Origin: an uncultured Planctomycetia bacterium
GTDB taxonomy: Bacteria; Omnitrophota; Gorgyraeia; Duberdicusellales; 4484-171
Length of the DNA: 64,000 nucleotides
Direction of reading: 5' to 3'
Assembly (NCBI GenBank): GCA_964629655.1
Contig: CAZVQU010000001.1
Coordinates: forward strand, 420,056-484,055
Both the position numbers and the translations under genes were made by a program. This document shows positions 6,971 to 35,516 of the stretch, in pieces (the stretch's first letter is position 1; every line of letters begins with the position of its first letter). The notes beneath the pieces were generated by a model. The model was not told the DNA's origin. It did not search any database and was given only the letters and a program-made list of their open reading frames with translations.

Positions 6971-7729
6971 TTATCCTAAGGAATTTTTAACTATTTCTAC
7001 AAAAGAAGAACTATCTAAAGAAGCTCCTCCTACTAACGCTCCATCGATATCATCCTGCTGCATTAATTCTTTTATATTAGCCGGTTTAACGCTCCCCCCG
7101 TAGAGAATACGCAGATTATCGGCTACCTCTTCTGAGCAATTATCAACTAACCAACCTCGGATAAAACTATGAACTTCTTGAGCTTGCTGAGAGGTTGCAG
7201 TCTTTCCAGTGCCGATTGCCCATACTGGTTCATAAGCAATGATTAAATTTAAAAGCGCATCTTTTTCCAAACCTTCTAAGCCTCCAGCTAACTGGCTCTT
7301 TACAACATCAATAGTCTTGTCCGCTTCACGCTCTTCTAAGGTTTCACCTACGCAAAAAATAGAAATTAAATCTGTCCTTTGAGCTGCCTTTATTCTTTTA
7401 TTTACACTCTCATCACTCTCGTTAAAGTACTTTCTTCTCTCGGAGTGTCCGATAATTACATATTTACAACCGGCATCCTTTAGCATTTCCGGTGAGATTT
7501 CACCAGTAAAAGCACCTGAAGCTTCCCAGTAAACATTCTGAGCTCCTAGAAAGATATTAGAATCTATTAAAAGGTCTGAAACGTCAGAAAGTGCTGTATA
7601 TACCGGGCAAACGATAATCTCTGCCTCTTGAATATCAATAAGCTCTCTCTTTAAGCTATTAACTAGCTCGATTGCTTCCTTAATAGTCTTGTTCATCTTC
7701 CAATTACCAGCAATAACGGGTTTTCTCAT
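6971..7729 (-). CDS. tpiA: Triosephosphate isomerase
   Basis: Canonical N-terminus (VIAGNWKMN). Catalytic motifs IIGHSERR and AYEPVWAIGTG. Confidence 0.92.
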   Translation of the reverse strand: MRKPVIAGNWKMNKTIKEAIELVNSLKRELIDIQEAEIIVCPVYTALSDVSDLLIDSNIFLGAQNVYWEASGAFTGEISPEMLKDAGCKYVIIGHSERRKYFNESDESVNKRIKAAQRTDLISIFCVGETLEEREADKTIDVVKSQLAGGLEGLEKDALLNLIIAYEPVWAIGTGKTATSQQAQEVHSFIRGWLVDNCSEEVADNLRILYGGSVKPANIKELMQQDDIDGALVGGASLDSSSFVEIVKNSLG

Positions 7730-7777
7730 AATTTATTCCTTCCTCATCAATAAGGTTCCTAATAATAACTTATACTT

Positions 7778-8962
7778 CTATTTATCAGCTAGGGCTGCAA
7801 CCCCTGGCAATACCTTACCCTCTAAATACTCTAGAGATGCTCCGCCACCAGTAGAAATATGTGACATTTTACAAGAAAGAGAAAACTTTGCTACTGCAGC
7901 TGCGGTGTCTCCTCCGCCAATAACCGAGGTTGCCCCTGAGACAGCAATAGCTACAGCTAAAGCCTCTGAGCCCCCGGCAAATGCATCTTTTTCAAAAATT
8001 CCTACTGGTCCATTCCAGACAATGGTTTTGGCTTCTCTTATTTTATCACAGAAAAGCTTTATTGTCTTAGGGCCAATGTCAACAGCCATCCAACCGACAT
8101 CAACAGAAGCACCTTCAGTAGTTTTAACATTAGCAGCTTCCTTAATATTGTCAGTGATGACATGATCAACTGGCAAGAGGATCTCAACACCCTTTTTTCC
8201 TGCCTTTTTGAGTATTTTCTCTACCGTTTCAAATGATTCTTCCTCGACGCGAGAAGAACCAACGTCAACGCCTCCAACCTTCATGAAGGTATAAGCCATT
8301 GCCCCGCCTATTAAGAGGCAATCAGCTTTATCAATCATGTTCTCGATAACTGGAATCTTATCAGATACTTTTGCACCGCCAAGTATAAAAATAAAAGGTT
8401 TAGAGCTTGAAGTTAAAACCTTGCTGAAGTACTCTATCTCTTTTTGAACTAAAAACCCTGACACTGACTCAAGATGATGAGTTACTCCTTCAGTAGAAGC
8501 ATGCGAGCGATGACAAGTTCCAAAAGCATCATTAACAAACACATCTCCCAATGCCGCTAATTCCTTAGCAAACTCAGGATCATTTTTTATCTCGGCGGTA
8601 TGGAATCTTAAATTCTCAAGAACCACAACATCGCCTTCACTCATCTGGCTAACAGCAGCTTTAACTGCCTCGCCAACACAATCGTCAAGCAGCCTGACTG
8701 ACTTTTCCAATAACCTGCCTAGGTGCCTAGCTACTGGCCCTAAGCTAAATTCCTTCTTCCTCTCGCCCTTGGGTCTTCCCAGGTGGCTAATTAGAATAAG
8801 CTTTCCGCCGGCTTGGATAATATACTTTAAAGTCTGTAAAGCCTTCTGGATTCTATTGTCATCAGTAATGTTTAGATTCTCATCCAGGGGTACGTTAAAA
8901 TCAACTCTGGTAAGCACACGCTTACCCTTAAGGTCAATATCTTTTACTGATTTTTTATCCAC
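7778..8962 (-). CDS. pgk: Phosphoglycerate kinase
   Basis: RVDFNVP N-terminal motif. Nucleotide-binding loop GGGDTAAAV. Length 394 aa. Confidence 0.92.
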   Translation of the reverse strand: MDKKSVKDIDLKGKRVLTRVDFNVPLDENLNITDDNRIQKALQTLKYIIQAGGKLILISHLGRPKGERKKEFSLGPVARHLGRLLEKSVRLLDDCVGEAVKAAVSQMSEGDVVVLENLRFHTAEIKNDPEFAKELAALGDVFVNDAFGTCHRSHASTEGVTHHLESVSGFLVQKEIEYFSKVLTSSSKPFIFILGGAKVSDKIPVIENMIDKADCLLIGGAMAYTFMKVGGVDVGSSRVEEESFETVEKILKKAGKKGVEILLPVDHVITDNIKEAANVKTTEGASVDVGWMAVDIGPKTIKLFCDKIREAKTIVWNGPVGIFEKDAFAGGSEALAVAIAVSGATSVIGGGDTAAAVAKFSLSCKMSHISTGGGASLEYLEGKVLPGVAALADK

Positions 8963-8980
8963 CTTTTAACTCCGGGCTTC

Positions 8981-9982
8981 TTATTTAACCATATACTTAA
9001 TTAAATCTACGACTCGGCAAGAATAACCCCACTCGTTGTCATACCAAGATAAAATCTTAACCATATCGCCAAAACAAAATGTTTGTTTAGCATCTACTAT
9101 TGAAGATAGTGGATTCTTCTTAAAATCAATAGATACTAACGGCTCGTTGCTTACTCCCATTATTCCTTTCATCTTGCCATTAGCAGCCTCGGTTAAAACC
9201 TTATTTACCTCTTCAGTTGTAGTCTCTTTCCCTAGCTGGAATACAACGTCAACTATAGAAACAGTAGGGGTGGGGACTCTTATTGCTAAACCATCAAGTT
9301 TTCCTTTCAGCTCAGGGATAACTAATCCTACTGCCTTAGCTGCACCAGTTGTAGTTGGTATCATTGAAAGCGCAGCTGCTCTGGCTCTGCGTAAATCAGA
9401 ATGCGGATAATCTAACACCTTTTGGTCATTAGTGTAAGAATGAATCGTAGTCATAAGTCCTTTCTTAATATCAAAAGCATCTTTTAAAGCCTTTGCTACT
9501 GGTGCTATACAATTAGTAGTACACGAAGCGTTAGATACTATATTATCTTTGCCGGCATCGTACTTCTCTTCATTTACCCCTAAAACAAAGGTAGCAACAT
9601 CCCCTTTAGCTGGGGCTGATATTATAACTTTCTTTGCTCCAGCCTTGAGATGTAATCCGGCCTTCTGGGCATCACGGAAAAATCCGGTTGATTCTACTAC
9701 TACCTCTACTCCCAAATCTGCCCAGGGAAGATTAGCAGGATCTCTCTCTGATAAGACTTTAATCTTCTTTCCATCAATCACAAGAGAATCTCCCTCAGCT
9801 TTTACCTCATTGGAAAGAATACCAAAATTTGAGTCATATTTTAGAAGATAAGCTAAGGTAGCTGCATCAGTAAGGTCATTCACAGCTACAATATCAACAT
9901 TTGCTTCACCTCTTTCTAGCGCTGACCTCAACACTAATCTTCCAATTCTACCAAACCCATTAATACCTACTTTTATTCCCAT
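8981..9982 (-). CDS. gap: Glyceraldehyde-3-phosphate dehydrogenase
   Basis: NGFGRIGR Rossmann motif. Active-site ASCTTNC. Confidence 0.92.
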
Positions 9983-20056: not shown

Positions 20057-20136
20057 AGGGTAAGATATTAACATATTGACCAAAATGCGTCAAGCCATAA
20101 AAAAGGGGGAAATTAAAATGGACACATGCCCATTTC

Positions 20137-23100
20137 TCACTCCTCGCTCGCGCAGCGCTCCAGGGAAATAATGTTAAACGTAAGACCGGCAGCATCTTTG
20201 AATTCCTGGACCATGCGCGCACCGAGGATCTGGGTTACGTTCCCAAAACCTCCTGAAATTTCTACGCTGGTCGTTAAATCAATTCCTCCTTTGGTGGCAC
20301 TCAGTGCTGACGATACAGACATCTGTTGATTACCCTCAACGTAATGATACACCGAATCATACTTCGGGGGTAAGTTAGAACGTGAAGGACGCTTTTGCGG
20401 TTCACGCGCAAACGCTAACTGAGGAAACTGAATATCCGGACGACGATTGACTATCTTTAACACTAGATCTGACCTGTCCGTCTGCTCGTCAAGGTATTTC
20501 ATGCGTCCGGGCACATAAAAATACTGCTTACCGGGGACGTTGAGCCGGTTAAAGAACTTTTCTTTACTCATACCTTCAATGGAAAAACCTTCAATCAGGC
20601 TAAAGAATGCGACACCATCTTTTTCCAGCACCCGCTTTACTTCACTAATTAAGACATGCTTATTCTTTAGATACACACCGACGGCGACCGGAACTAATAC
20701 TCCTAAGAATTCACCATCTTCGTAAGGCAGGCCGTTCTCAACATCCCAGAGCTTTAATCTACTGCGAAAATCATGCATAAACCGATCAAACAGCATTTCG
20801 CGGGCTTCAAAGCTTACCGCGTTGATTCTTTGCTTCATCAAGCCATAATTTGGTAAATACAACTCTTCTTTATTGATGAATTGTAATTCAATATTAGGAA
20901 AATTTTCCTGGATATCCTGAACAACAACCCCGGCGCCCACCCCGATAATCAGTAACTTCTTAGGACTTTCCTTTGTCGAGCGGCGATTAAGTTCATCAAG
21001 GAATTGTGAAACTTCCCCTTCAAAAATACGATCATCGACCCAAAGCCCGCGGGTAGTATTATTCATCCCGTAAGGATTCTTAATTGAAGATGAGGCTGCG
21101 CTACCGCCGGTGATACTCAAAGGTTGCTGGTAATCATCACTTTGCTTTATTTCTCCCCGCGGCCGCACATCCCGTAAAGAAATATTCTTAATGACCCTTA
21201 CATATTCCGGCCACCCTCCACCTTGCTCTGCATTCTCAGCGATGTATTTTATGGCTTTACTGTATACCGATGAAAATTGGCTCTGATCGATACTATATTT
21301 ACGCATTAGTAATGCTACCTGAAGGTTCACATCTGCGGAAACTCTGGCACCAATTTCATGATGTTCTGAGTAATGATCATAGGGCTCCAATATGTCATCG
21401 GTCAACCGAGCAGTGGGAACCAGCGACAAGGTACCGTATGTGCCCAACACCTGATTGCGGGCCGATTGAAACTCTTCACTGCTTGTATCCAGTTGCAATA
21501 GTTTCCTTTTGTGCACAGAGGTATCAAACGTTGCCTCCTGTTCGATAAATCCTCCCAGATAATAGAGTTCCGACGGCGTAAGAAAGGTAATAATCCCGGG
21601 AATACTTTCTCCGGAACTTGTTAATAATTGTCGCAGGCGCCGATAGCCAAGAACCCGCTCTAACCATGATAACGTTTGTTCAGTTGGAAAATTAGTATTT
21701 TTTAACACCTCCTTGGCAAGTTCTGTGCGATGATAGGCATAGGTAAGCACTTCCGAGAAATGATGAATAAAGCTAGCCCGGTTCGCCAGCGCAAAACCAA
21801 ATCGATCAGCAAATTCATGATTAACTTGTTTGTCTTTCTCATTGTCAATAACAAATCCTTTATATCCTTGACTATTCTCAAGGATAAGGAACTCATACAA
21901 ATGTGCGATCTCACTACTTAAACTGAATGCACCTCCCTGTATGCTCACTTCCGTAATCATCGCCAATGGTGATTGGAGGGAAATATTGTCACGGTTAAGC
22001 AAACCAGTAGAAAATGATCCACCACCCCAGGGATTACTCATATAAAAATACCATCGATGACGATGCATGAATCCCTTGGGCAATAACGCTAGCACCGAAT
22101 CATCCCATAACCGCAGATACTGCGCATAAGCCAAACCCCAGAGAAAATCTCCTAAATCATCTTGGTTTATTTCCTGCTGTCGTAATATGCCCTTGATTTT
22201 TTCTGCCTCCCGAACAGAACGTGCTCGATTTCCTCCAGGAACAAGCGATTCGTTTAATGCAAGCATTAAAAGATCCTGGACACCCATTGCCTGTATTTCT
22301 CGATCACTATAGTATCCATTCTGTCTTGCTTTGTGACGAATGATGGGAACTACAACTGTATCTATCCATGATTGATACCCGCCAACCATATCACCAGTTA
22401 CCAGACTGATTAAAGCATTTTCTGCCTCAACAGAGGATATTACTTCGTCTCTGGCCAGTCTTACCAGGAGAGAAAGACAACCATGAAAGAGCTTCGTCAT
22501 TTCGTCTTTTCGATCATAATCTTTCATAGTATTGATTTCTCTCATGCGATTAACGTAAGTCTCAACCGTTGCCACACTCGATACGGGCACAACTTCAAAC
22601 AGGACAAACATATTCCAATATTTTCTATACGTATCCACCTGCGCTGCCATCAGCCGCAATATGTCCTCTAAAACTTTAGCATCACCCCTCCACTTATGTG
22701 TCGTTCCCACAAACGCATAAAACAAGCGCTTCATCGAATCATCCTGGCAGGCGACAGGCAACGGAACCACTTTTAAAAGAATTGCTCTTCTTTGAGGAGA
22801 GAGGCGACTTAATTGATGAAAAACTTCGCTAACATAGTAATCAGATATGAGCTTTCTAAAAATAGTAGCAAGACTTACATCGCTTCCCAAAACAGTTTTC
22901 CATATATCAACTCCCCCCGGTACCGACGTTATTTTCCCTTGTGAGAATCCAATGTAATTTAAGGTGGGAATCAAATTGTAACTAATATTCGCTACATGCT
23001 TACTGTTCATCCAGGCATAGGCATCAATGTGATCGAGAACAAATAATTGTTTCTCTAGATTTATCTTGGACAGAGGGGTAATGATGTATTCTTTGAATTT

Positions 23101-25293
23101 CTTAAGTTCTTCTCGTGAATTTATCTCTCCTTCAATACTGATGGCAATCCTTTGCCGAACAACATCATCAAACTCACTAAGCAACGCTTCTTTTTCAACG
23201 GCAATGCGAGCCTGTTCATCCGGATAACGCACATAAATATCAACACCTGATAAATAATGTGACGGTTCGTTCGTTTCCCATGTCTTGTACAAAACATCCT
23301 GCGAGAAGGGAGCATCGGGCGTAACGTTAACTGCAAAAGGCTTGACCGCTAAAGATGTTTTCTCAGCATAGGCGTTAATTTTATCAAATACTGCAACCGG
23401 ATCGATCCCTACAAGATATTCGGTAGTATACGTTTCCTGAATGACCAATTTTACCTTATCGCCTAAGGCAGTTTTGAGCACTCTCCCTGCAGTATCAATA
23501 TTTGCCTTCTTATAATCGCTGAACCCTGCAGCGACGTGCCTACTACCGGCAAAGCCGATGATCTTTGCATGAGGATTCTTTTTTAATATTTCAAAGACAT
23601 GTAAGGCCATCCCTTCATCGACCGTCACTCGCTCTCCCTGAGCATTCGTTACATACCCATACTCATCTCCCATGCCAGGAACGGTTGTATGTGCGGTACG
23701 TGGATCAAAAGCAGTCACCTTGATACCGGCGCTGCGAGCAGCACTGAAAATATCTTCATAGGCCGCAAAAGCTGCTTCAGGAAATCCCACGGGTATGTCG
23801 GAATAAATAATTCCGTCAAGCATCCTTGGGTTACCGCTTTTCATGTAAAGATCGATGTACTCTTGATACTGCTCGTCTATCTCAAGAACGATATCGGTCA
23901 ATCCGCGGTCCCGCATGATACTCATTACATTAACCATGACATTCTTATGATCTACACTGGAATGTTCTTCACCAAGCATAACCACCTGCGCTCCTTGTTC
24001 AAAAAGATCAACGATAGTCTGGGTGATGTTTGTCCGGGCGTTTTGTTCAATGTACTGCATCACTGATGCTTCAGAGGCTAATATCGGCTCGGGCACTGTC
24101 AGCGTAAGTGTTTTAACCGGAGCGATGCTACATGCAGTAAGAAACATCGTTCCCAGTGTGAAGAATGTCCGACGCGTCATGCGTATTGGCGATGAACTCA
24201 CCGAGACATTGAGCCACTCTTCGGAATCAGAAAATCCCAGGCCACCGGAAAAGTACCTCCGTTTGATTTGCCTTCGTTCATAGGGATCGTAATCTTTTCG
24301 TATGTAATTATAAATGCCTTTCTTAAAGGACTCGACATACTGGTCATAAATCGTGTTCTTTATATCTTTGTCTTCTATGTCGATACCGGTTACCTTATTT
24401 TTATCGATGTAATATTGATAAATTGAATTTCTTAATTTCTGCTTAAACCAGGCCGCCAGAATGACCGAATGATATATCTGCCTGAGCCTGGCAAAATGTT
24501 GTTTATGGTTTACTTCCCCTGAGAGTTCGGGAAGGATAGTTTCTTTCATGATGCAGGAAGTCACTTTATTGATTTGCTCGGCCTGGGTAAGTGGCTTCTC
24601 TTGCTGTTCGCTGTGGCGGGAGAGTGCAAGATAATCTTCTTCGAGAAGAACTTTTAAACTGGCGTCGGTAATCATGGCTATGGTTCCGTCTTCGATAACC
24701 TTCGCCTGTCCGGGCACAATCCAGACCTTATTAAACGTATTGACTGGAACGTTTATAGTGGCAGCAAGCTTGTATATCTCTTTATAAGTCATCTCCCAAT
24801 AGTCCTTACCGGTAGCAGTATCCGGATGCATGAATGATGCGATGAGTTGCTTTAATAAGTAATCCTGAGCCAGCATGTCTTTCCCCAGATCAGTGACGCC
24901 TAAGCTATCAGGAATTATCCTGTCCTGTTCATAAGGAGAAAGATTCACCCATAAATCCTGTTCAGGGGTAGTAAGCGCTGCCAGGAAATATTTGATAAGA
25001 TCGGAGGCTTCTTCTTCACTTATTTCATCCTTATCCTGGGTATCAATAACGAACTGAAGTTTAAGTGGGTCCTTGGGATCAAGCTGTATGCCTTTGAGTA
25101 CAGGATAAGAATGGGTATATGAAGGAGCGAGCAACTGTTGAGCTGACGGTAGATCAAGTGCTACAGCATGGGCTTGTTCATCATTTACGCCTAATCGCTG
25201 GACATAGAAATACATGGAGCCTGCTGCAAGACAAACTGCAACATAGAGCCCTATTGCCCTAAAACCAATAGTACCTTTCTTATGGTGAGTCAT
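20137..25293 (-). CDS. Giant (1718 aa) multi-domain membrane/lipoprotein: N-terminal TM segment, internal Tat-type lipoprotein signal, ChaN/Tiki/TraB-like GxxH domain, long helical middle, C-terminal spermidine-synthase-like Rossmann methyltransferase fold
   Basis: Single uninterrupted ORF. TM helix at residues 14-31. TRRTFFTLGTMFLTAC at residue ~372 fits a Tat motif plus lipobox. Paired GxxH motifs (GEEH, GSRH) follow. C-terminal GxGxG (LLIIGVGAGVVVQD) precedes an acidic residue, as in PABS/class I methyltransferases. Confidence 0.6.
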   Translation of the reverse strand: MTHHKKGTIGFRAIGLYVAVCLAAGSMYFYVQRLGVNDEQAHAVALDLPSAQQLLAPSYTHSYPVLKGIQLDPKDPLKLQFVIDTQDKDEISEEEASDLIKYFLAALTTPEQDLWVNLSPYEQDRIIPDSLGVTDLGKDMLAQDYLLKQLIASFMHPDTATGKDYWEMTYKEIYKLAATINVPVNTFNKVWIVPGQAKVIEDGTIAMITDASLKVLLEEDYLALSRHSEQQEKPLTQAEQINKVTSCIMKETILPELSGEVNHKQHFARLRQIYHSVILAAWFKQKLRNSIYQYYIDKNKVTGIDIEDKDIKNTIYDQYVESFKKGIYNYIRKDYDPYERRQIKRRYFSGGLGFSDSEEWLNVSVSSSPIRMTRRTFFTLGTMFLTACSIAPVKTLTLTVPEPILASEASVMQYIEQNARTNITQTIVDLFEQGAQVVMLGEEHSSVDHKNVMVNVMSIMRDRGLTDIVLEIDEQYQEYIDLYMKSGNPRMLDGIIYSDIPVGFPEAAFAAYEDIFSAARSAGIKVTAFDPRTAHTTVPGMGDEYGYVTNAQGERVTVDEGMALHVFEILKKNPHAKIIGFAGSRHVAAGFSDYKKANIDTAGRVLKTALGDKVKLVIQETYTTEYLVGIDPVAVFDKINAYAEKTSLAVKPFAVNVTPDAPFSQDVLYKTWETNEPSHYLSGVDIYVRYPDEQARIAVEKEALLSEFDDVVRQRIAISIEGEINSREELKKFKEYIITPLSKINLEKQLFVLDHIDAYAWMNSKHVANISYNLIPTLNYIGFSQGKITSVPGGVDIWKTVLGSDVSLATIFRKLISDYYVSEVFHQLSRLSPQRRAILLKVVPLPVACQDDSMKRLFYAFVGTTHKWRGDAKVLEDILRLMAAQVDTYRKYWNMFVLFEVVPVSSVATVETYVNRMREINTMKDYDRKDEMTKLFHGCLSLLVRLARDEVISSVEAENALISLVTGDMVGGYQSWIDTVVVPIIRHKARQNGYYSDREIQAMGVQDLLMLALNESLVPGGNRARSVREAEKIKGILRQQEINQDDLGDFLWGLAYAQYLRLWDDSVLALLPKGFMHRHRWYFYMSNPWGGGSFSTGLLNRDNISLQSPLAMITEVSIQGGAFSLSSEIAHLYEFLILENSQGYKGFVIDNEKDKQVNHEFADRFGFALANRASFIHHFSEVLTYAYHRTELAKEVLKNTNFPTEQTLSWLERVLGYRRLRQLLTSSGESIPGIITFLTPSELYYLGGFIEQEATFDTSVHKRKLLQLDTSSEEFQSARNQVLGTYGTLSLVPTARLTDDILEPYDHYSEHHEIGARVSADVNLQVALLMRKYSIDQSQFSSVYSKAIKYIAENAEQGGGWPEYVRVIKNISLRDVRPRGEIKQSDDYQQPLSITGGSAASSSIKNPYGMNNTTRGLWVDDRIFEGEVSQFLDELNRRSTKESPKKLLIIGVGAGVVVQDIQENFPNIELQFINKEELYLPNYGLMKQRINAVSFEAREMLFDRFMHDFRSRLKLWDVENGLPYEDGEFLGVLVPVAVGVYLKNKHVLISEVKRVLEKDGVAFFSLIEGFSIEGMSKEKFFNRLNVPGKQYFYVPGRMKYLDEQTDRSDLVLKIVNRRPDIQFPQLAFAREPQKRPSRSNLPPKYDSVYHYVEGNQQMSVSSALSATKGGIDLTTSVEISGGFGNVTQILGARMVQEFKDAAGLTFNIISLERCASEE

Positions 25294-25466
25294 ACAACTT
25301 ACCTTATATATAAATGTACCATATACAAAGAGTGGTTTTTAGAGTAATGGAAGGATGAAATGAAAGCGTTTACGGAAAAGAATGGGCATGCTTCTATTTT
25401 TGGCTGAATCTGTGGTGAACAAAAAAAATAGAAGCGTTGTCCCTGTTTAATTTATCTAAATCCAGC

Positions 25467-25760
25467 TTAGAATCTAGGCCGGTTTCCCTGGTCAAACCCT
25501 TGCTTAGGCGGTTTGGCCTTATTTACCTTTAAGGCTCTTCCGTTTAAATCTTGACCATCTAAAGTTTCAACTGCTTTCTGAAGCTCTTCGTCAGTCTCAA
25601 AGGCTACAAATCCAAAGCCCTTAGATCTGCCGGTATACTTATCTTTTATTACCTTCACATCTTTTGCCTGAAAACCTTTACCTTCAATAAAGCTCTTTAG
25701 CACATCTTCATCCACGCCATACTCTAAATTGCCTACGTAAATTTTATTCTCTTCGCTCAT
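25467..25760 (-). CDS. RRM-domain RNA-binding protein
   Basis: RNP-2 (IYVGNL) and RNP-1 (KGFGFVAF) motifs. Length 97 aa. Confidence 0.75.
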   Translation of the reverse strand: MSEENKIYVGNLEYGVDEDVLKSFIEGKGFQAKDVKVIKDKYTGRSKGFGFVAFETDEELQKAVETLDGQDLNGRALKVNKAKPPKQGFDQGNRPRF

Positions 25761-25971
25761 CCTGCACTCACCTTTTTAGTTTCTGAAGCCTGTCCCAAAA
25801 ATAAATTCACAAACCCTTAACTCCTTCTCTCCCTGTATCATCCCTCCTATATAAATGGTTATTCGTCTCAAAAGAAAACAAGCACAACACCATACATACT
25901 CATTGTCTTCTGTTATTTTGTTCTATTATATCGTATTTTAACAATATATGACTTAAAAAATATCCTTTGAA

Positions 25972-26196
25972 CTATTTAACCTGCTCAACCTCTTTAACTT
26001 CTGGGACTACCTCTTTTAATCTTTGTTCTATCCCCATTTTGAGAGTATGAGTACTCATTGGACAGCAACCACAAGCGCCAGTTAAGCGAACCTTAACTAT
26101 ACCATCTTCAGTAACATCAACGAGTTCTACATTACCGCCGTCAGCTTGCAAAGCTGGTCTTATTCCCTCTAACGCTTTTTCAACTTTTTCTCTCAT
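25972..26196 (-). CDS. NifU/Nfu-like Fe-S cluster scaffold domain protein
   Basis: 74 aa with a CxxC pair (GACGCCPMS), typical of the NifU C-terminal domain. Confidence 0.65.
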
Positions 26197-26205
26197 ACTA
26201 ACCTC

Positions 26206-29494: not shown

Positions 29495-29645
29495 AATAAG
29501 GGATAAATGCAATATTGACCTGTAAACATTTTCAAAATATCTTTATTATTACCTTGAAAAAATATAGAAAATATGTTACATTTTAAAGGATACTTGTGTT
29601 TGATGTTGGGAGGCGTCAAAGGCAGATTTTTGATTGGATTTTGGA

Positions 29646-31025
29646 ATGGAAAAAAAGGCACGTTTAGTAACACTTTTATTAATCTGCTTTCTGCTTCCCT
29701 TAAACATTTGGGCTGCAGCAAGCCTCTCAGTGGTTCCTCTCGAAGGAGGCAATAGCCTTCGCTTTGGAAGAATAACCTCCGACAGTACAATAAGCAAACA
29801 AGTCAGGATAAGAATTACTTCTGATTTAGGAGTAAAATACCAGGTCGAACAAAGACTGCTCGAGCCTTTGCGAAATGCTAGAGGCGAATCACTAAATGCT
29901 GATGTCTTTAATTTCTACACCTTAAGGGGCTCAAACCTAACTGGTAGCCTTTACCAAGACACACCTTACAGAGTAGATACTTTCAAAAGAATTCTTTATG
30001 TTTCAGCTGCTGCCGGTACCGGCGATTCTTTTTCAGTTATTTATTCAATTGACCCAAGTAAAATAAACATCTCGGGAAATTTCTTTGGTAGAATTTTATT
30101 TACTTTTACTCCTCTAGGCGCCGGTGGCACCCAAAGAGAAGTTATCCTTAATGTTTACTTTGAAACTGAGAAGAACTTTCAGGTAAGTCTAAGAACATCT
30201 TCTCAAAGCTCCCGAACCTTAAGACTTTCGTCAAGTAAGGATCAATTAGAGGGTTACTTACAAATTAGTGCCGAAGGTTCTTTAGGGCAAAAATACGAAG
30301 TAAAGCAAGTAGTCCAGGAGCCATTTAAAAATGAGAAGGGCGAAGTTATTCCCTTAGAGCTAGTTAAAGTATTCGCATCAAGCAGTAAAGGTCAAACCTA
30401 TGCCTCCTCTCCCACTCCTCTGGCTAGAAAGACTCTCCTGATATACGGTTCCGAGGCCCGAGGAGAAGGCGATGAAATCGTAGTTAACTTTTCTGTCAAC
30501 ACTGAAGACTTTGAAGAATTGCCGAGCGGTCATTTTAAAGCCCTAGTATTATATAATATCGAATCTCTGGGCTCTTTGATAAAAAGACTACCAGTAGATA
30601 TATCTTTAGAGATAAAGCCGATATTTGATATCGAAGTCGTCTCTGAATCTGTGGGGGGCTTATATTTTCGAAACTTAAAGCCCGACTCAGGATTAATAGA
30701 AAAAGAAATAATCATTAAAGTCCAAACTAATCTCAATCGGCCTTACAACGTTGTCCAAAATCTAAACACTCCGCTTGCTAATCAAAGCGGAAATACTATT
30801 CCTTTGCAATCCTTCCGCTTAAGAGAAGAAGAAAGTAAAGATAATCCAGGAAATATAATTTTTTCTCAATATACTCCTTTAAATTTAGGAGATACTAGAG
30901 TTTTTGCTTCTAATTCAACCGGTGATTCTTCAGAATTCAAAATCATTTATTCTTTGGAGGTTCCAAGGGACATGGTTGGCGGGGACTACTTTACAGGATT
31001 AAACTACTCTCTAGTAGAGAAATAA
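29646..31025 (+). CDS. Secreted protein with three tandem pilin-like (spore-coat-U/Csu-like) domains; candidate tip adhesin or fibre subunit
   Basis: Start set at the ATG at 29646 (MEKKARLVTLLLICFLLPLNIWAAAS signal peptide). The ORF-track start at 29634 is a TTG. Three ~140-aa repeats each carry a conserved core: LGVKYQVEQRLLEPLRNARGESL, LGQKYEVKQVVQEPFKNEKGEVIPL and LNRPYNVVQNLNTPLANQSGNTIPL. Confidence 0.6.
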   Translation: MEKKARLVTLLLICFLLPLNIWAAASLSVVPLEGGNSLRFGRITSDSTISKQVRIRITSDLGVKYQVEQRLLEPLRNARGESLNADVFNFYTLRGSNLTGSLYQDTPYRVDTFKRILYVSAAAGTGDSFSVIYSIDPSKINISGNFFGRILFTFTPLGAGGTQREVILNVYFETEKNFQVSLRTSSQSSRTLRLSSSKDQLEGYLQISAEGSLGQKYEVKQVVQEPFKNEKGEVIPLELVKVFASSSKGQTYASSPTPLARKTLLIYGSEARGEGDEIVVNFSVNTEDFEELPSGHFKALVLYNIESLGSLIKRLPVDISLEIKPIFDIEVVSESVGGLYFRNLKPDSGLIEKEIIIKVQTNLNRPYNVVQNLNTPLANQSGNTIPLQSFRLREEESKDNPGNIIFSQYTPLNLGDTRVFASNSTGDSSEFKIIYSLEVPRDMVGGDYFTGLNYSLVEK

Positions 31026-31058
31026 ATTATAAAACCAAAAAAAAGGAGGTGAATTGGT

Positions 31059-31685
31059 GTGAAAAAATTGATTGCAGCCTTAATGTTAATCTCACTTGTA
31101 AGTTCAGCGAGTATTTGTTCAGCAGGAACTACTGCTAGTGTAGGTGTTCAGGCTACTGTTCCACAACAGTTGGAGCTAAGTAGCTGGATTCGCTATGCTC
31201 CTCCGGGAGTTGATCCTTACGGAACAGGCTCAGGGGATGCCGCAAGCTTAGACTTTGGTACTCTTGCCTTTGATGATACCTATCATACATGGACAGCCTC
31301 GAAATACTTTACTGTATTTCTTCTGGCTAGCTCATCAGGAAGGCCCTATAGGATTGAACAGACAAATACAGGTTTTGTTCTTGGCAGCACTACTCTTGAT
31401 AACAACTTGATTTTGACTCCTGACTATCAGTCAGGTGACGAGATAGTATCAGGAACTGCTCAAGGAAGCATACCTTCAGGAGACAGTTTCGGTGCTAAGA
31501 CATTAGCTTTGGGAACCAACAAGATAATCTACAATGGCACCTCAGGGCTATCAAGAATAGCAAGAGCATACTATGGTCTAGCTACAGGGGATGCTGGTGA
31601 GCCCTCGGGGGCAGAACCAATCACTGGAGACCAAATCTCAGGAACATATGCGGGAACAATAACTTTTTCTGTTGTTCTCCAATAA
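31059..31685 (+). CDS. Secreted single-domain pilin-like subunit (spore coat protein U / CsuA/B-like)
   Basis: GTG start at 31059, preceded by an AAGGAGGTG RBS. Signal peptide. The RPYRIEQ core is shared with the repeats of the upstream protein. Gly/Ser/Thr-rich. The C-terminal alternating strand GTYAGTITFSVVLQ is characteristic of SCPU-domain donor-strand pilins. Confidence 0.55.
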   Translation: MKKLIAALMLISLVSSASICSAGTTASVGVQATVPQQLELSSWIRYAPPGVDPYGTGSGDAASLDFGTLAFDDTYHTWTASKYFTVFLLASSSGRPYRIEQTNTGFVLGSTTLDNNLILTPDYQSGDEIVSGTAQGSIPSGDSFGAKTLALGTNKIIYNGTSGLSRIARAYYGLATGDAGEPSGAEPITGDQISGTYAGTITFSVVLQ

Positions 31686-31842
31686 AGTTAAGTTGTAGAG
31701 ACATAGTACAAAACTTTTAAAGAAATCTACTACACAAAGATGGCCACCGGTAGATTATCCAGATTAACACAGATATTCTGTGTTAATCTCGGTTTTAAAA
31801 ATACTGTGGCCGTCTTTGTGTATAGTACAAAGAAGGAGATAA

Positions 31843-32640
31843 GTGCTTAAGAAAACTATTTTCCTATTTTTACTGTTTTTGTTGCCTTTCTCATCGTTTG
31901 CCTTAAGGATTGATAACCCTAAGATCAAACTCCAACTTTCTCCAAGCGACAATTACAGTGGAACTATTATTGTAGACAACCCCTCTAGTGATGAAGTCTC
32001 GGTAAAGACATACTTAGAAGACTTTACCTATGTCACTCCTTTTGATGGCGCTAAAGAGTTTTATGCTCAGGGCACAACAAAAGCATCCCTTTCGAAATGG
32101 ATAACCTTTTCTCCTCGAGAGTTCACATTGCAACCTTTTTCACGCCGAAGAGTTAATTTTTCAATAAGTCCTAAGTCTTCTTTCAATTCTGTTCGTTGTG
32201 GAGTTCTATTCTTTGAGACATCTATCGGAACTACCTATGAGAATGGCAAGGCGATAAATGTTGTGGGCAGAATCGGTTCTTTATTCTTTGTTGAACCAAA
32301 AAATAAGAGCAAGCGAGCAACTTTCACTAGTATTAAAGGCCTCTCTCATTCTTTAACCGGTGATTTTACTAACTCCGGTAATTCATTTATCCATGCTCAA
32401 GGCACATCCTATACCATAGATAACGAAGGCATGGTTAAAGATAGAAGTGTTTTAGAAGAAAGTTACCTTTTACCTAATGATAGTACCAAATTGCAAATGG
32501 CTTTATCTAGCGATTTAGCACCTGGCACTTACACGATGGTAATTACTTTTGATTTAGAGGAGGATGATTCTTTGGTTAAAGAAATTGATTTCTCTCTCTC
32601 AGGTTCAGGAAAAGTTACCGTCTTAGATGAGAGAAATTAA
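31843..32640 (+). CDS. Putative periplasmic PapD-like fibre chaperone
   Basis: Signal peptide (MLKKTIFLFLLFLLPFSSFA). N-terminal LRIDNPKIKL...GTIIVDNPSSDEVSV resembles the first β-strands and conserved Arg of Ig-fold pilus chaperones. The ~240-aa mature length fits two Ig-like lobes. Its stop overlaps the downstream start (TAATG). Confidence 0.45.
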   Translation: MLKKTIFLFLLFLLPFSSFALRIDNPKIKLQLSPSDNYSGTIIVDNPSSDEVSVKTYLEDFTYVTPFDGAKEFYAQGTTKASLSKWITFSPREFTLQPFSRRRVNFSISPKSSFNSVRCGVLFFETSIGTTYENGKAINVVGRIGSLFFVEPKNKSKRATFTSIKGLSHSLTGDFTNSGNSFIHAQGTSYTIDNEGMVKDRSVLEESYLLPNDSTKLQMALSSDLAPGTYTMVITFDLEEDDSLVKEIDFSLSGSGKVTVLDERN

Positions 32641-35516
32641 TGCCGAAAAAAATCAAAATTCTTTTATTGTTTGTAGTTTTTTTATTTTGCTTCTCCTCTA
32701 TTCTCTATCCCCAATCTCGCTCTTGTAGGTATTTATTAGAGCTGGGTAAGTGGGAATTAAGAGACGACAACTACGAAAAAGCCCTCCATTACTTTCAAAT
32801 TGCTCAATTAATAGATCCCGAATCAAAGGAAGCCCTGTCTTATATTAACTTAATAAAACGGGCGCTTGAAGGCAGAATTATCCGTGATGAGATCTATGAC
32901 GAAGAAGAGATTGCCAGCTCAACAGAATCTATTCTGGAAGGAAAAAGCAAAGATAAAGAAAAGCAACGAGAAGTAATAAGTGATACTCTGACTTCTTGGG
33001 AGAAAAAAATAGCTGGAGGGAAAAAAGATCAGGAAAAAATTACTGTCTTCCCCCCTCTATACCTTAAAACTATCCAAGAGATCGAGGAAGAAAAAGGAAT
33101 CAAAGAAATAAAAGATACGGAAAAAGTAAAAAGAAAAGTAGCTCCTCATAAGAAAAAAACAGCTAAAAAAGAAGAAATAATCTACCTTACCTCTGAAACT
33201 AGGGATGAATTCCCTCTAACCATAAAAATCGCCCCCGGTGAATCATTCAAAATTGACTCTGAAACCTTAAAAAGATTTCTGATAGTCTCTCCGGGAGTAA
33301 TTAAAGTAGATAAGCTTGCCATTAATGCCTTGGGCGTCACTGCTGCCAGCCTCGGCTCTTCATTCTTACATGTTTGGGATGACGTCGGCAGGTGGACCTT
33401 TAATATAAAAATTATCCCTCCACGAGTAGTAGTGAAAACCGAACAACTTTGGGAAAAGCCTGATGGCTTTAAATTCATGTATAGTGCTGACTACAGCCAA
33501 TATTACAGAGGTGATAAGTTTGCTGACATGGAAAGGCAAACACTCACCTATGATGAAGGAGCAGCTATCGTCGGACCAACCCCCTATGGGGAGTTAGATG
33601 CTTCTGTAAATTGGTCACGGCTTAATAAGCAAAAGGAAGTAACCGGCTATACTGTAGGCTTAAGCGAAGGGCGTTTCTTGAATTTTAAAGATTTTTATAT
33701 CCGTGGTTTTGATTTTAGAGAAACTTTCTCGTCTTTATCATTCCCAGGAGAAACCTTAAAGGGTGTAGTCTTTAGATCACCGGCTTTTCATGAAAAAATC
33801 GAATATACTCTGCTTTACGGGCGACAAAAGCAATACTCATCAGGAATCATCTCTCCAGGGGTTATCGAAGAAGAAGACTCTTATATTGAAGGCTTACGGC
33901 TGAGCTTGTTCCCGCATAATAAACATAAGTTTTTCTTTAACTATGCTCACGGATTTGGCGAAGACAGAGAAGATTATCTTAAAGACGAGGTTTTCTCTTT
34001 CCAAAGTGAGCACAATTTCGGAAATCTTGATATCATAACTGAAGTAGCTTCAGATAAAGACTCTATAGGAGCCAACTTCTCTTCAAAAATCCAGATGCCC
34101 AAACTTAACTTAAATCTTTCTTTTCGCGATATCGAGAAGGATTTTGTTACTATCTCAGGTAGACCGCCTAACACCGGAGAAATTGGAGCTATCGCTGGTC
34201 TCGATTGGAATCCAAACGATAAGGTCTCCCTAAACTCAAGCCTAGATGTCTATAGAGATAGAGAGTTTTTTAATCCTGAAAACGAAAATGACCCTAATTT
34301 TAATTGGAATAATTATTTGAATATACGCTTATCACCCACTTCGAACTTAGCTACAAGTCTGTATTATATTAATTCTCCAGGCCTTCTCTCACCCCAAAGA
34401 AGTTTAAATGCCACTACTACCTATAGCAAAAGGTTTAACTGTAACCTCTTTGGTGATAGATCAATTAATACATTCCTTGGCTACAATTACCAGAGGAGCA
34501 TTAATCCCCTTTCACCGACCTCTGACTACAGACGTGACGGCATACTTAGCGGCTTACGCCTTCAATTAGCCGGAGACCTATATTATTACCTTAACTATAA
34601 CTTCTCCTGGGTAGATGAACTCTATACTGGTGAGGAATCAAAACCTTCGGTTACTGAGACCGGATTAGACTTCTACCACACCTTTAATCCTAATTTATCT
34701 TCTAACTTACGCTTAAGTTACCGTGATGAAGAGAATGCATCTGCTCTACACTCCTTCCTCTCTGGAGAAGATAGCCTCGAAGGAAGCCTAAACCTTACTT
34801 ACAGCCCTAAAAAAGGTGCTGAATTCTTCCTTGATGGAAGAGTAAGAAATGTCTGGGCCGAGAATGCTGGCACAGAAGAGTTTATCGAAGCTGACATACG
34901 ACTAGGAGCACGCTTATCCTGGGACAACTTCTTCAGCTGGTCACCGGAGACAACAATACAAGGTTTTGTATTCAAAGACTCTAATGGTAACGGGGAAAAA
35001 GATGATGATGAAATTGGAATACCTGGAGTAGAAATAATTGCCGGCCCTAAAAAAGTTACCAGCACCAAAAGTGGAAAATTTACTACTACAGTAAAGGCAA
35101 AAAGGATAATTGCTAATATCAACTTTAATAGTGCACCTAAAGGCTATATTTTAACTACTCCGGCATCTTTTAATTTAGATACCTCTACTGGCGAAAAACA
35201 TAACATAAATTTTGGCATATCTCCTCAATCAGGAATATACGGAGTTGTTTTTTACGACTCTAACGGAAATAATAAGCTGGATAAAAAAGATACTACTATT
35301 TCGGGAGTAAAGATAATCCTCAATCAGAAGAAAAAAACAGTTACCAATAGCGAAGGTGTTTATTTCTTCGGTGGTATTCCTACCGGAACCCATAGCTTAA
35401 CCTTTGATGTTAATTCTATACCTTTAGAATATTTGCCTAAGGTCTCGATAAAAAAAGAGGTAGATGTTTCTGAAGGACTTACCTACACCTACCATATCCC
35501 CTTGCAAAAGAAATAA
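32640..35516 (+). CDS. Large outer-membrane assembly-platform-like protein: TPR + CpaC/secretin-type N-terminal domain + Tyr/Asn/Ser-rich β-barrel-like region + two C-terminal CnaB/SdrD-B-like β-sandwich domains (usher analogue?)
   Basis: Signal peptide. TPR helix pair. A K/E-rich linker. GESFKIDSETLKRFLIVSPGVIKVD...LGSSFLHVWDDVGRWTFNIKI matches the pilus-formation N-domain found at the N-terminus of CpaC-type secretins. About 450 aa of alternating-polarity β-strands end in Y/F/W-rich strands. Two C-terminal repeats (GFVFKDSNGNGEKDDDEIGIPGVEI, GVVFYDSNGNNKLDKKDTTISGVKI) follow. Confidence 0.55.
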   Translation: MPKKIKILLLFVVFLFCFSSILYPQSRSCRYLLELGKWELRDDNYEKALHYFQIAQLIDPESKEALSYINLIKRALEGRIIRDEIYDEEEIASSTESILEGKSKDKEKQREVISDTLTSWEKKIAGGKKDQEKITVFPPLYLKTIQEIEEEKGIKEIKDTEKVKRKVAPHKKKTAKKEEIIYLTSETRDEFPLTIKIAPGESFKIDSETLKRFLIVSPGVIKVDKLAINALGVTAASLGSSFLHVWDDVGRWTFNIKIIPPRVVVKTEQLWEKPDGFKFMYSADYSQYYRGDKFADMERQTLTYDEGAAIVGPTPYGELDASVNWSRLNKQKEVTGYTVGLSEGRFLNFKDFYIRGFDFRETFSSLSFPGETLKGVVFRSPAFHEKIEYTLLYGRQKQYSSGIISPGVIEEEDSYIEGLRLSLFPHNKHKFFFNYAHGFGEDREDYLKDEVFSFQSEHNFGNLDIITEVASDKDSIGANFSSKIQMPKLNLNLSFRDIEKDFVTISGRPPNTGEIGAIAGLDWNPNDKVSLNSSLDVYRDREFFNPENENDPNFNWNNYLNIRLSPTSNLATSLYYINSPGLLSPQRSLNATTTYSKRFNCNLFGDRSINTFLGYNYQRSINPLSPTSDYRRDGILSGLRLQLAGDLYYYLNYNFSWVDELYTGEESKPSVTETGLDFYHTFNPNLSSNLRLSYRDEENASALHSFLSGEDSLEGSLNLTYSPKKGAEFFLDGRVRNVWAENAGTEEFIEADIRLGARLSWDNFFSWSPETTIQGFVFKDSNGNGEKDDDEIGIPGVEIIAGPKKVTSTKSGKFTTTVKAKRIIANINFNSAPKGYILTTPASFNLDTSTGEKHNINFGISPQSGIYGVVFYDSNGNNKLDKKDTTISGVKIILNQKKKTVTNSEGVYFFGGIPTGTHSLTFDVNSIPLEYLPKVSIKKEVDVSEGLTYTYHIPLQKK

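Follow-up and report, generated by a model that had tools for sequence, protein, structure and literature searches.

The giant ORF and its internal signal-like segment

The window analysed here is the whole stretch of 64,000 nucleotides from an uncultured Omnitrophota bacterium (GenBank assembly GCA_964629655.1, contig CAZVQU010000001.1, positions 420,056 to 484,055), and our subject is a giant open reading frame (ORF) on its minus strand, whose 1718-residue product is laid out as an N-terminal module, a variable cargo and a C-terminal tag (Table 1). A preliminary description had claimed, 371 codons into this ORF at nt 24180-24130, a signal peptide of the twin-arginine translocation (Tat) type that ends in a lipobox. 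Translation and a shuffle test bear this claim out. On the minus strand the codon of Met372 occupies nt 24180-24178 and is followed by TRRTFFTLGTMFLTAC, with the codon of Cys388 at nt 24132-24130. The composite pattern, which consists of [ST]RRx[FL]phi, a short run of uncharged residues and a lipobox, is found a single time in the protein (aa 373-388) and is not a product of chance, because none of 50,000 residue shuffles reproduced it; the bare Tat hexamer by itself came up in 541 of 20,000 shuffles (2.7%). The signal-like segment at residue 372 is hence confirmed as genuine, as is the hydrophobic helix that had been claimed for the start of the ORF (core aa 13-31, Kyte-Doolittle (KD) hydropathy 1.77).

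The same description had called the segment a textbook N-terminus of a Tat lipoprotein, and here only a part stood. The twin arginine (RR), the hydrophobic region (h-region) and the lipobox are all present, but the motif reads T-R-R-T-F-F-T where the Tat consensus is S/T-R-R-x-F-L-K, lacking the L and the K. The h-region after the RR, FFTLGTMFLTA, is moderately hydrophobic, as in Tat signals (maximum of 1.33 in a 19-residue KD window); the stretch spans about 12-17 residues and is weaker than the N-terminal helix (1.33 vs 1.77). It ends in L-T-A-C (aa 385-388), in agreement with the lipobox [LVI][ASTVI][GAS]C. The position departs from that of a precursor signal, which is N-terminal: the segment starts at residue 372 of 1718, and its Cys at residue 388 lies far beyond the first 40 or so residues expected of a lipoprotein precursor. 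The profiles TIGR01409 and PF10518 did not match the segment even at E <= 10. As controls, the stand-alone homologue P0193 (P and L numbers are our handles) scored 20.9 bits with TIGR01409 against a cut-off of 16.7, the internal signals of P0002 and P0061 scored 16.5 and 15.7 bits with the same profile, and that of P0018 scored 19.4 bits with PF10518 against a cut-off of 22.7. In the AlphaFold2 (AF2) model the segment forms a helix set apart from the rest (aa 374-390), with a predicted local distance difference test (pLDDT) value of about 60 and unpacked against the domain that follows; a single Lys (K394) and then acidic residues come after it.

At its own N-terminus the protein carries a Sec-type signal or signal-anchor with a positively charged n-region, MTHHKKGTIGFR. 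In the 152 N-termini of the family, the n-region is net-positive in 147 and a hydrophobic core is present in 149, while 54 have an [AS]xA[QEA] site (e.g., ...PSFAQ, ...AYAQ) immediately ahead of a conserved LxLPxPG; judged from their sequences, they are classical Sec signals. Next comes a conserved module of about 320 residues with the motifs LxLPxP, LKGIxIxPxNPLxFDFIIDT, WVNLSPYE, LAQDYxLKQ and NTFNKVWIVP, ending in RRYFSGG. Its alignment has 42 invariant columns, and over aa ~1-355 the query is 41-56% identical to 118 proteins, with one outlier at 36%. The AF2 model, of moderate confidence, is an alpha/beta domain (pLDDT 75.5, predicted TM-score (pTM) 0.69), for which no relative was found in Pfam, NCBIfam or PDB sequences, nor by Foldseek among PDB or BFVD folds. 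Conserved polar residues (N117, S119, E122, D144, K148, Q149, K189, D220, R271 and K284) might form an active or binding site.

With the full-length protein as query, more than 3,300 significant matches came back, which by source name are large proteins of Candidatus Omnitrophota. Among the 119 best non-self matches (949-2919 aa), all except P0052 were confined to query residues ~1-355, and always with their own N-terminus. The cargos behind the module are unrelated to one another, including enolase, TIM, PGK, GAPDH, PEP-utilising enzymes, HEAT repeats, UbiB kinases, response regulators, methyltransferases, DnaJ and PP2C, among others. The family occupies at least 595 loci of GTDB species genomes, frequently several per assembly; most are labelled Omnitrophota, and many auto-named metagenome-assembled genomes carry the label uncultured Planctomycetales. 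No other copy of the module or of the C-terminal tag was found within the 64-kb window. The module is thus promiscuous, preceding hundreds of unrelated cargos, and the query, with its Sec-type signal followed by WVNLSPYE, LAQDYxLKQ and YFSGG, can be placed in this undescribed family. Elsewhere in the window (6971-9982, minus strand), TIM, PGK and GAPDH are encoded one next to the other by canonical, separate genes, and in other Omnitrophota genomes paralogues of the scaffold family include extra fused copies of TIM, PGK and GAPDH.

The cargo of the query has three domains. The first, domain A, is a predicted hydrolase of the ChaN/Tiki/erythromycin-esterase fold: PF04187 matched it with 38.2 bits in the whole protein and 42.4 bits in aa 372-694 (cut-off 27.7), and the AF2 model of aa 352-720 (pLDDT 79.5, pTM 0.79) matched, with Foldseek probability 1.0, the PDB entries 3b55 (E 5.6e-7), 6xcq (EreC) and 2g5g (ChaN). 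Toxin effector domains are among its structural neighbours as well, namely HopBA1 (5t09) and RRSP of MARTX (5w6l), both also at probability 1.0, and PMT. Members of the Tiki superfamily are characterised by a pair of GxxH motifs together with a conserved Glu; domain A has G441-EEH444, E471 (in LEIDE) and G583-SRH586, and an alignment of 22 sequences shows no variation in G, H, E and Q and almost none in the second G/H. Domain B is shared with P0052, P0124 and several proteins of two to six thousand residues. Domain C matched Methyltransf_11 weakly (E 0.25) and has homologues in P0122, P0125 and P0129; a Ser-rich linker, GGSAASSSI (aa 1396-1404), stands ahead of its Rossmann region. The protein ends in a tag of about 60 residues with the core GGIDL ... 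G[LF][TS]FxI (aa 1669-1709). GG[IV][DN]x in the final 110 residues, followed by G[LF][TS]FxI, was found in 98 of 120 family members, and therefore the variable cargo is bracketed by two conserved ends. The fuller pattern of the tag in the family is aSS[SP]x ... GGIDL ... [SSP(I/V)] ... G[LF][TS]FxI.

Table 1. Features of the giant ORF (positions in the window; all on the minus strand)
Feature	Residues	Position	Strand	Basis
Giant ORF, including stop codon	1718 aa	20137..25293	-	translation
N-terminal Sec-type signal or signal-anchor	9-34	25192..25269	-	KD 1.77, AF2 helix
Conserved Omnitrophota N-module	46-351	24241..25158	-	shared region of >3,300 matches, AF2
Module-cargo linker (LGFSDSEEWLNVSVSSSPIR), ending in S-rich aSSP[IV]	352-371	24181..24240	-	AF2 pLDDT <50
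Internal Tat-like motif, short h-region and lipobox (M372-TRRTFFTLGTMFLTA-C388)	372-388	24130..24180	-	translation, pattern scan
Cargo domain A, predicted ChaN/Tiki/erythromycin-esterase fold	~408-700	23194..24072	-	PF04187, Foldseek
Cargo domain B, large, helical, no family assignment	~705-1377	21163..23181	-	homologue search
Cargo domain C, Rossmann methyltransferase-like (LLIIGVGAG)	~1388-1650	20344..21132	-	Methyltransf_11 (weak)
C-terminal tag, SVSSALS...KGGIDL...GLTFNIISLE	1655-1718	20140..20331	-	family alignment

Origin of the segment

A word-indexed search with cargo residues 372-1660 returned the query alone, and we used an exhaustive phmmer search with aa 372-1571 instead. It retrieved stand-alone ChaN-like proteins of about 300 residues. 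The N-terminal Tat signals of two of them, P0184 (LSRRDFIKKGAMFLAATT) and P0193 (QSRRTFLKRLGLATAG), align with the internal segment of the query, as do the lipoprotein signal of P0186 (...SIAGC) and the Sec signal of P0183, and the spacing between the signal and GE(E/R)H is similar in the stand-alone homologues and in the query. Among the P0193-family proteins listed, 16 of 23 have SRRxF[LF]K at the N-terminus; lipobox signals are found in P0186 and P0123, which are stand-alone or other homologues. The closest ChaN-like domain (47% identity, aa ~1120-1480) belongs to P0121, a polytopic membrane protein of high GC content, in which a transmembrane (TM) helix, SRRQF and a weak helix stand directly ahead of that domain.

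Because the N-terminal signals of the stand-alone homologues align with the internal segment, a gene fusion, the first explanation of the preliminary description, is supported: a promiscuous 351-residue module upstream, and downstream a part whose relatives exist as separate genes, as found for the ChaN/Tiki-like domain. The fusion partner is, as far as the matches tell, no ordinary gene; it is a promiscuous module specific to the phylum. The segment was very probably inherited from a formerly stand-alone exported protein of the ChaN/Tiki type.

A second signal at this place is not peculiar to the query. By a hydrophobicity criterion, 35 of 183 members carry a signal-like segment at the boundary between module and cargo, roughly 15-20% of the family. 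These are Tat-like in P0002, P0005, P0018, P0061, P0062, P0082 and L048, of the lipobox type in P0037, P0047, L031 and L056, and signal peptidase I-like in P0052, P0059, P0049, P0094, P0117, L022 and L042. The strict Tat motif is about 10-fold enriched at the boundary (7 per 18,880 aa vs 5 per 140,776 aa). A fraction near 20% is about what random capture of whole genes, including their N-termini, is expected to give from the frequency of signal peptides, and the family-wide pattern fits such capture. A tandem arrangement was also seen in P0124, the homologue of domain B that has no module: within its aa 1-110, a Sec signal is followed 45 residues later by SRRKFLLK and an h-region.

The sole collinear orthologue, P0052, is about 30% identical to the query and has the same continuous architecture. 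At the equivalent position it has RLLNLRNMFIILGFISALMMASVMSKAQS (LNLRNMFIIL aligned), a hydrophobic, Sec-type segment that lacks both the RR and the Cys. It is a homologue of the kind that the preliminary description had set against its own claim, continuous and with the RR not conserved, and it speaks against a Tat function under present selection; the fusion origin is unaffected. Since P0052 is devoid of the RR and the Cys and the profiles were silent, selection appears to act on the presence of a hydrophobic, signal-like helix at the junction and to leave the RR and the lipobox Cys free to change. The start called for P0052 lies too far downstream: the frame runs on upstream (L085, nt ~1440-1780), where it encodes a cleavable-looking Sec signal (...LVLTFGALSISPPDVSA|QN) and the first ~100 residues of the module, overlapping a 105-residue gene call on the minus strand that is probably spurious. 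A tblastn search with E. coli TatC, TatA and LspA against 0.97 Mb of DNA, of which 64 kb come from this genome, gave no match and is uninformative as to whether the organism encodes these proteins; a literature search on Tat in Omnitrophota returned nothing.

Present role of the segment

With moderate confidence we regard the segment as an inherited export signal at the fusion junction that has decayed in its Tat/lipoprotein features and survives there as a hydrophobic helix. The homology shows that the cargo was captured together with its own N-terminus into the scaffold of N-module and C-tag. The segment would most likely no longer work as an N-terminal Tat-lipoprotein signal; the N-terminal signal would set the targeting of the whole polypeptide, and the internal piece would remain as a short, weakly hydrophobic helix between module and cargo, either carried through with the chain or associating weakly with the membrane. 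Several observations speak against this reading. The internal segments of the family have the polarity of signal peptides, since of the two flanks the N-flank has the more positive charge in 27 of the 29 cases that were informative (p 1.6e-6), and many keep c-regions of the cleavage type (AxA-Q or lipobox), which hints at a maintained function. Two signals of N-in/C-out orientation around a soluble 320-residue module could not both insert canonically in one uncleaved chain. The argument from conservation rests on n = 1 collinear orthologue, and a purely vestigial signal would be expected to erode, whereas this orthologue, at about 30% identity, still has a signal-like helix.

A rival reading takes the segment for an export signal that acts at a second stage, once the precursor has been processed. 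A cut between module and cargo, for example behind the invariant SGG or at the linker's aSSP[IV] motif, would expose the Tat/lipobox segment near a new N-terminus, and the ChaN/Tiki-like cargo would then be exported and lipid-anchored independently. We consider this an unlikely course. Besides the kept polarity and c-regions, several features at the boundary favour it. The aSSP[IV] motif is about 17-fold enriched (143 observed, 8.6 expected) and occurs at linker or domain boundaries, frequently 0-15 residues ahead of internal signals; in the window its sites lie at 24181-24198, 21082-21102 and 20299-20319 (minus strand). Its codons vary, and therefore selection acts at the level of the peptide, which could be a putative processing or modification site. 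SGG at the end of the module and GG at the start of the tag are invariant or nearly so, and a cut after G351 would leave an n-region of 22 residues before the RR, like those of P0184 and P0193. Post-translational cleavage of Omnitrophota giant proteins has moreover been proposed (10.1101/2023.11.21.568195). Against it, neither a protease domain nor a cleavage event was seen and the module has no detectable fold relatives; the module's own Sec signal should start translocation ahead of any cytoplasmic processing; the RR and Cys are missing from P0052; and aSSP[IV] is present in only 54 of 190 family proteins. A recombination site at the DNA level beneath aSSP[IV] was also considered and rejected, as the Ser codons vary freely (AGT, AGC, TCN).

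Doubtful to a greater degree is a stop-transfer TM anchor, by which the module would be periplasmic and the cargo, including the S-adenosylmethionine (SAM)-methyltransferase-like domain, cytoplasmic. A hydrophobic segment does stand at the same position in P0052 and in the 15-20% of the family noted above, a cofactor-dependent cargo is plausible in the cytoplasm, and a topology of signal peptide plus TM helix was reported for 39% of long Omnitrophota proteins (10.64898/2026.06.07.730766). The charges, however, oppose the positive-inside rule for an N-out/C-in helix, given the more positive N-flank in 27 of 29 cases; the segment of the query is short and weakly hydrophobic for an anchor; c-regions of the cleavage type would be useless on the cytoplasmic side; and the ~80% of members that lack a segment nonetheless carry ATP- or SAM-dependent cargo.

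A wider proposal, which we hold to be improbable, is a phylum-wide targeting in two steps, with the Sec signal, the N-module and the GGIDL tag forming a carrier and the internal signals serving as its second stage rather than being relics. The carrier would export the cargo, possibly to the cell surface or to a prey or host cell, cleavage at SGG or aSSP[IV] would free it, and some 15-20% of cargos would use their own Tat, Sec or lipoprotein signal at a second membrane. If true, such a system would be a bacterial analogue of the bipartite presequences of plastids or of the release of effectors by MARTX toxins.

The preliminary description had also suggested an alternative internal start, by which M372 would open a separate, nested gene for a Tat-exported lipoprotein of 1347 residues, and there is little to recommend this. 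An in-frame ATG does stand exactly where a Tat lipoprotein with a short n-region would begin, and a few other internal signals start with Met (P0061 MSRRRFL, P0037 MTARYLR, L076 MMTKKK, L041 MSMGKK). The 25 nt upstream of M372 (CTCGGTGAGTTCATCGCCAATACGC) nevertheless offer no suitably spaced Shine-Dalgarno (SD)-like sequence and lack the A-richness of the genuine starts of the window, many genes of which use AGGAGG; no promoter-like site was seen on the minus strand at 24180-25293; the upstream sequences of 11 other internal signals show no consistent SD or start codon; and the internal Tat motifs are mostly without Met (P0002, P0005, P0018, P0062, P0082). The internal start is thus unsupported, and the signal at M372 probably marks no hidden gene. 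We did not use the argument that M372 is a fossil start codon, since Met stands beside about 5-6 of some 25 internal signals, roughly what the frequency of Met would give by our estimate. A terminator-like hairpin at 24250-24235 (minus strand), which coincides with the SGG codons, was not significant either (four such sites in the region vs 2.1 +/- 1.7 in shuffles).

The last suggestion, that a frameshift, a chimera or another sequencing or assembly error masks a stop and fuses two genes, can be set aside with near certainty, as the identical 1718-residue ORF was translated from three Logan places (runs SRR8146440, SRR24302413 and SRR24302412) and is listed from an NCBI source as well, P0052 is collinear, and the module is joined to cargo in more than 3,300 proteins. 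The Logan contigs with the ORF are independent of one another and come from at least three runs; four of them were read, and the flanking genes match the window (metH upstream; L21, Obg and ProB downstream). The sole hint in favour of an artefact is the GC skew of the plus strand, which is +0.03 to +0.08 over the part that encodes the module (24000-25300) and -0.05 to -0.23 over the cargo part (20100-24000) and the adjacent genes; the break in composition coincides with the fusion junction.

As to other genes of the window, two small ones are called on the equivalent Logan contig L001 in the interval that separates metH from the giant ORF (25300-26200, minus strand), one for a NifU-like protein of 74 residues and one for an RNA-binding protein of the RRM_1 type with 97; both are below the size cut-off of the window's ORF list and are missing from it. 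A sparsely annotated run of ORFs on the plus strand (29634-35516) includes three of 463, 208 and 265 residues without a Pfam match and one of 958 residues with only a C-terminal SdrD_B/CarboxypepD_reg-like domain.

Relation to known systems

Stand-alone proteins of the ChaN/Tiki/erythromycin-esterase type (PF04187; C. jejuni ChaN 2g5g, EreC 6xcq, BcR135 3b55) share with domain A the fold and the two GxxH motifs with Glu. In the query, however, the domain begins only at residue ~408 of 1718, behind the 351-residue module, it is followed by two more cargo domains and the C-terminal tag, and the Tat signal is degenerate.

Dual Sec-Tat proteins, such as the actinobacterial Rieske protein Sco2149 and Sco3746, have an internal RR and a helix of low hydrophobicity after a Sec segment; the number of TM domains upstream is even (2 or 4), so that the RR is cytoplasmic, and positive charges and a cofactor domain follow the Tat-dependent helix (PMC3471235, PMC5449189). 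The query resembles them in its internal RR and weak helix (1.33) downstream of a Sec-type N-terminal segment. Unlike them, it has a single hydrophobic segment upstream (aa 13-31) and then a soluble module of 320 residues, with no further KD peak that reaches 1.2 from aa 40 to aa 370 and hence no even number of TM domains, and only one Lys after the helix. The arrangement of P0121, in which TM helix, SRRQF, weak helix and ChaN-like domain succeed each other, resembles that of the dual Sec-Tat proteins.

The very large proteins of Omnitrophota known as Archaeovorins come from the same phylum as the query family (10.1101/2023.11.21.568195; 10.64898/2026.06.07.730766). According to the passages of these two papers that we retrieved, they share its cargo repertoire (HEAT repeats, PPDK, glycolytic enzymes, methyltransferases, HATPase), have a signal peptide and occasionally a TM helix, and are predicted to hold cytoplasm-type enzymes outside the cell; the query, at 1.7 thousand residues, does not approach their more than 10-30 thousand. 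The N-module, the GGIDL tag, aSSP[IV] and internal signal peptides are not described in those passages, and in one of the papers calls of signal peptides were suppressed on sequence chunks other than the first (10.64898/2026.06.07.730766). The architecture of N-module, free cargo and C-tag is thus abundant, lies outside Pfam and NCBIfam, and is undescribed in the Omnitrophota passages retrieved.

For the query, the apparent anomaly of a signal peptide in the middle of an ORF resolves to a fusion scar of identifiable origin and not an error. More broadly, the architecture may explain how the ultra-small, probably predatory Omnitrophota build and localise large multi-enzyme proteins, and the recurrent tandem signals bear on the destination and processing of these proteins.

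Delivery proteins with conserved ends and a variable middle are known from the MARTX toxins and from TpsA/CdiA, which begin with an N-terminal TPS domain. The query family may be likened to them in that conserved ends bracket exchangeable cargo and a Sec signal is followed by a conserved N-terminal domain. The N-module shows no similarity in sequence or fold to the TPS beta-helix or to MARTX repeats, and no partner transporter or processing protease was identified; delivery into another cell is pure conjecture. A second parallel comes from proteins of the thylakoid lumen, whose bipartite presequences consist of a transit peptide and a second signal of the Tat or Sec type, often with a twin arginine; the two lie side by side and act at two membranes in succession, and processing takes place between the two steps. 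The query would resemble these in carrying two targeting signals in series, which in its case are set apart by a conserved domain of 320 residues.

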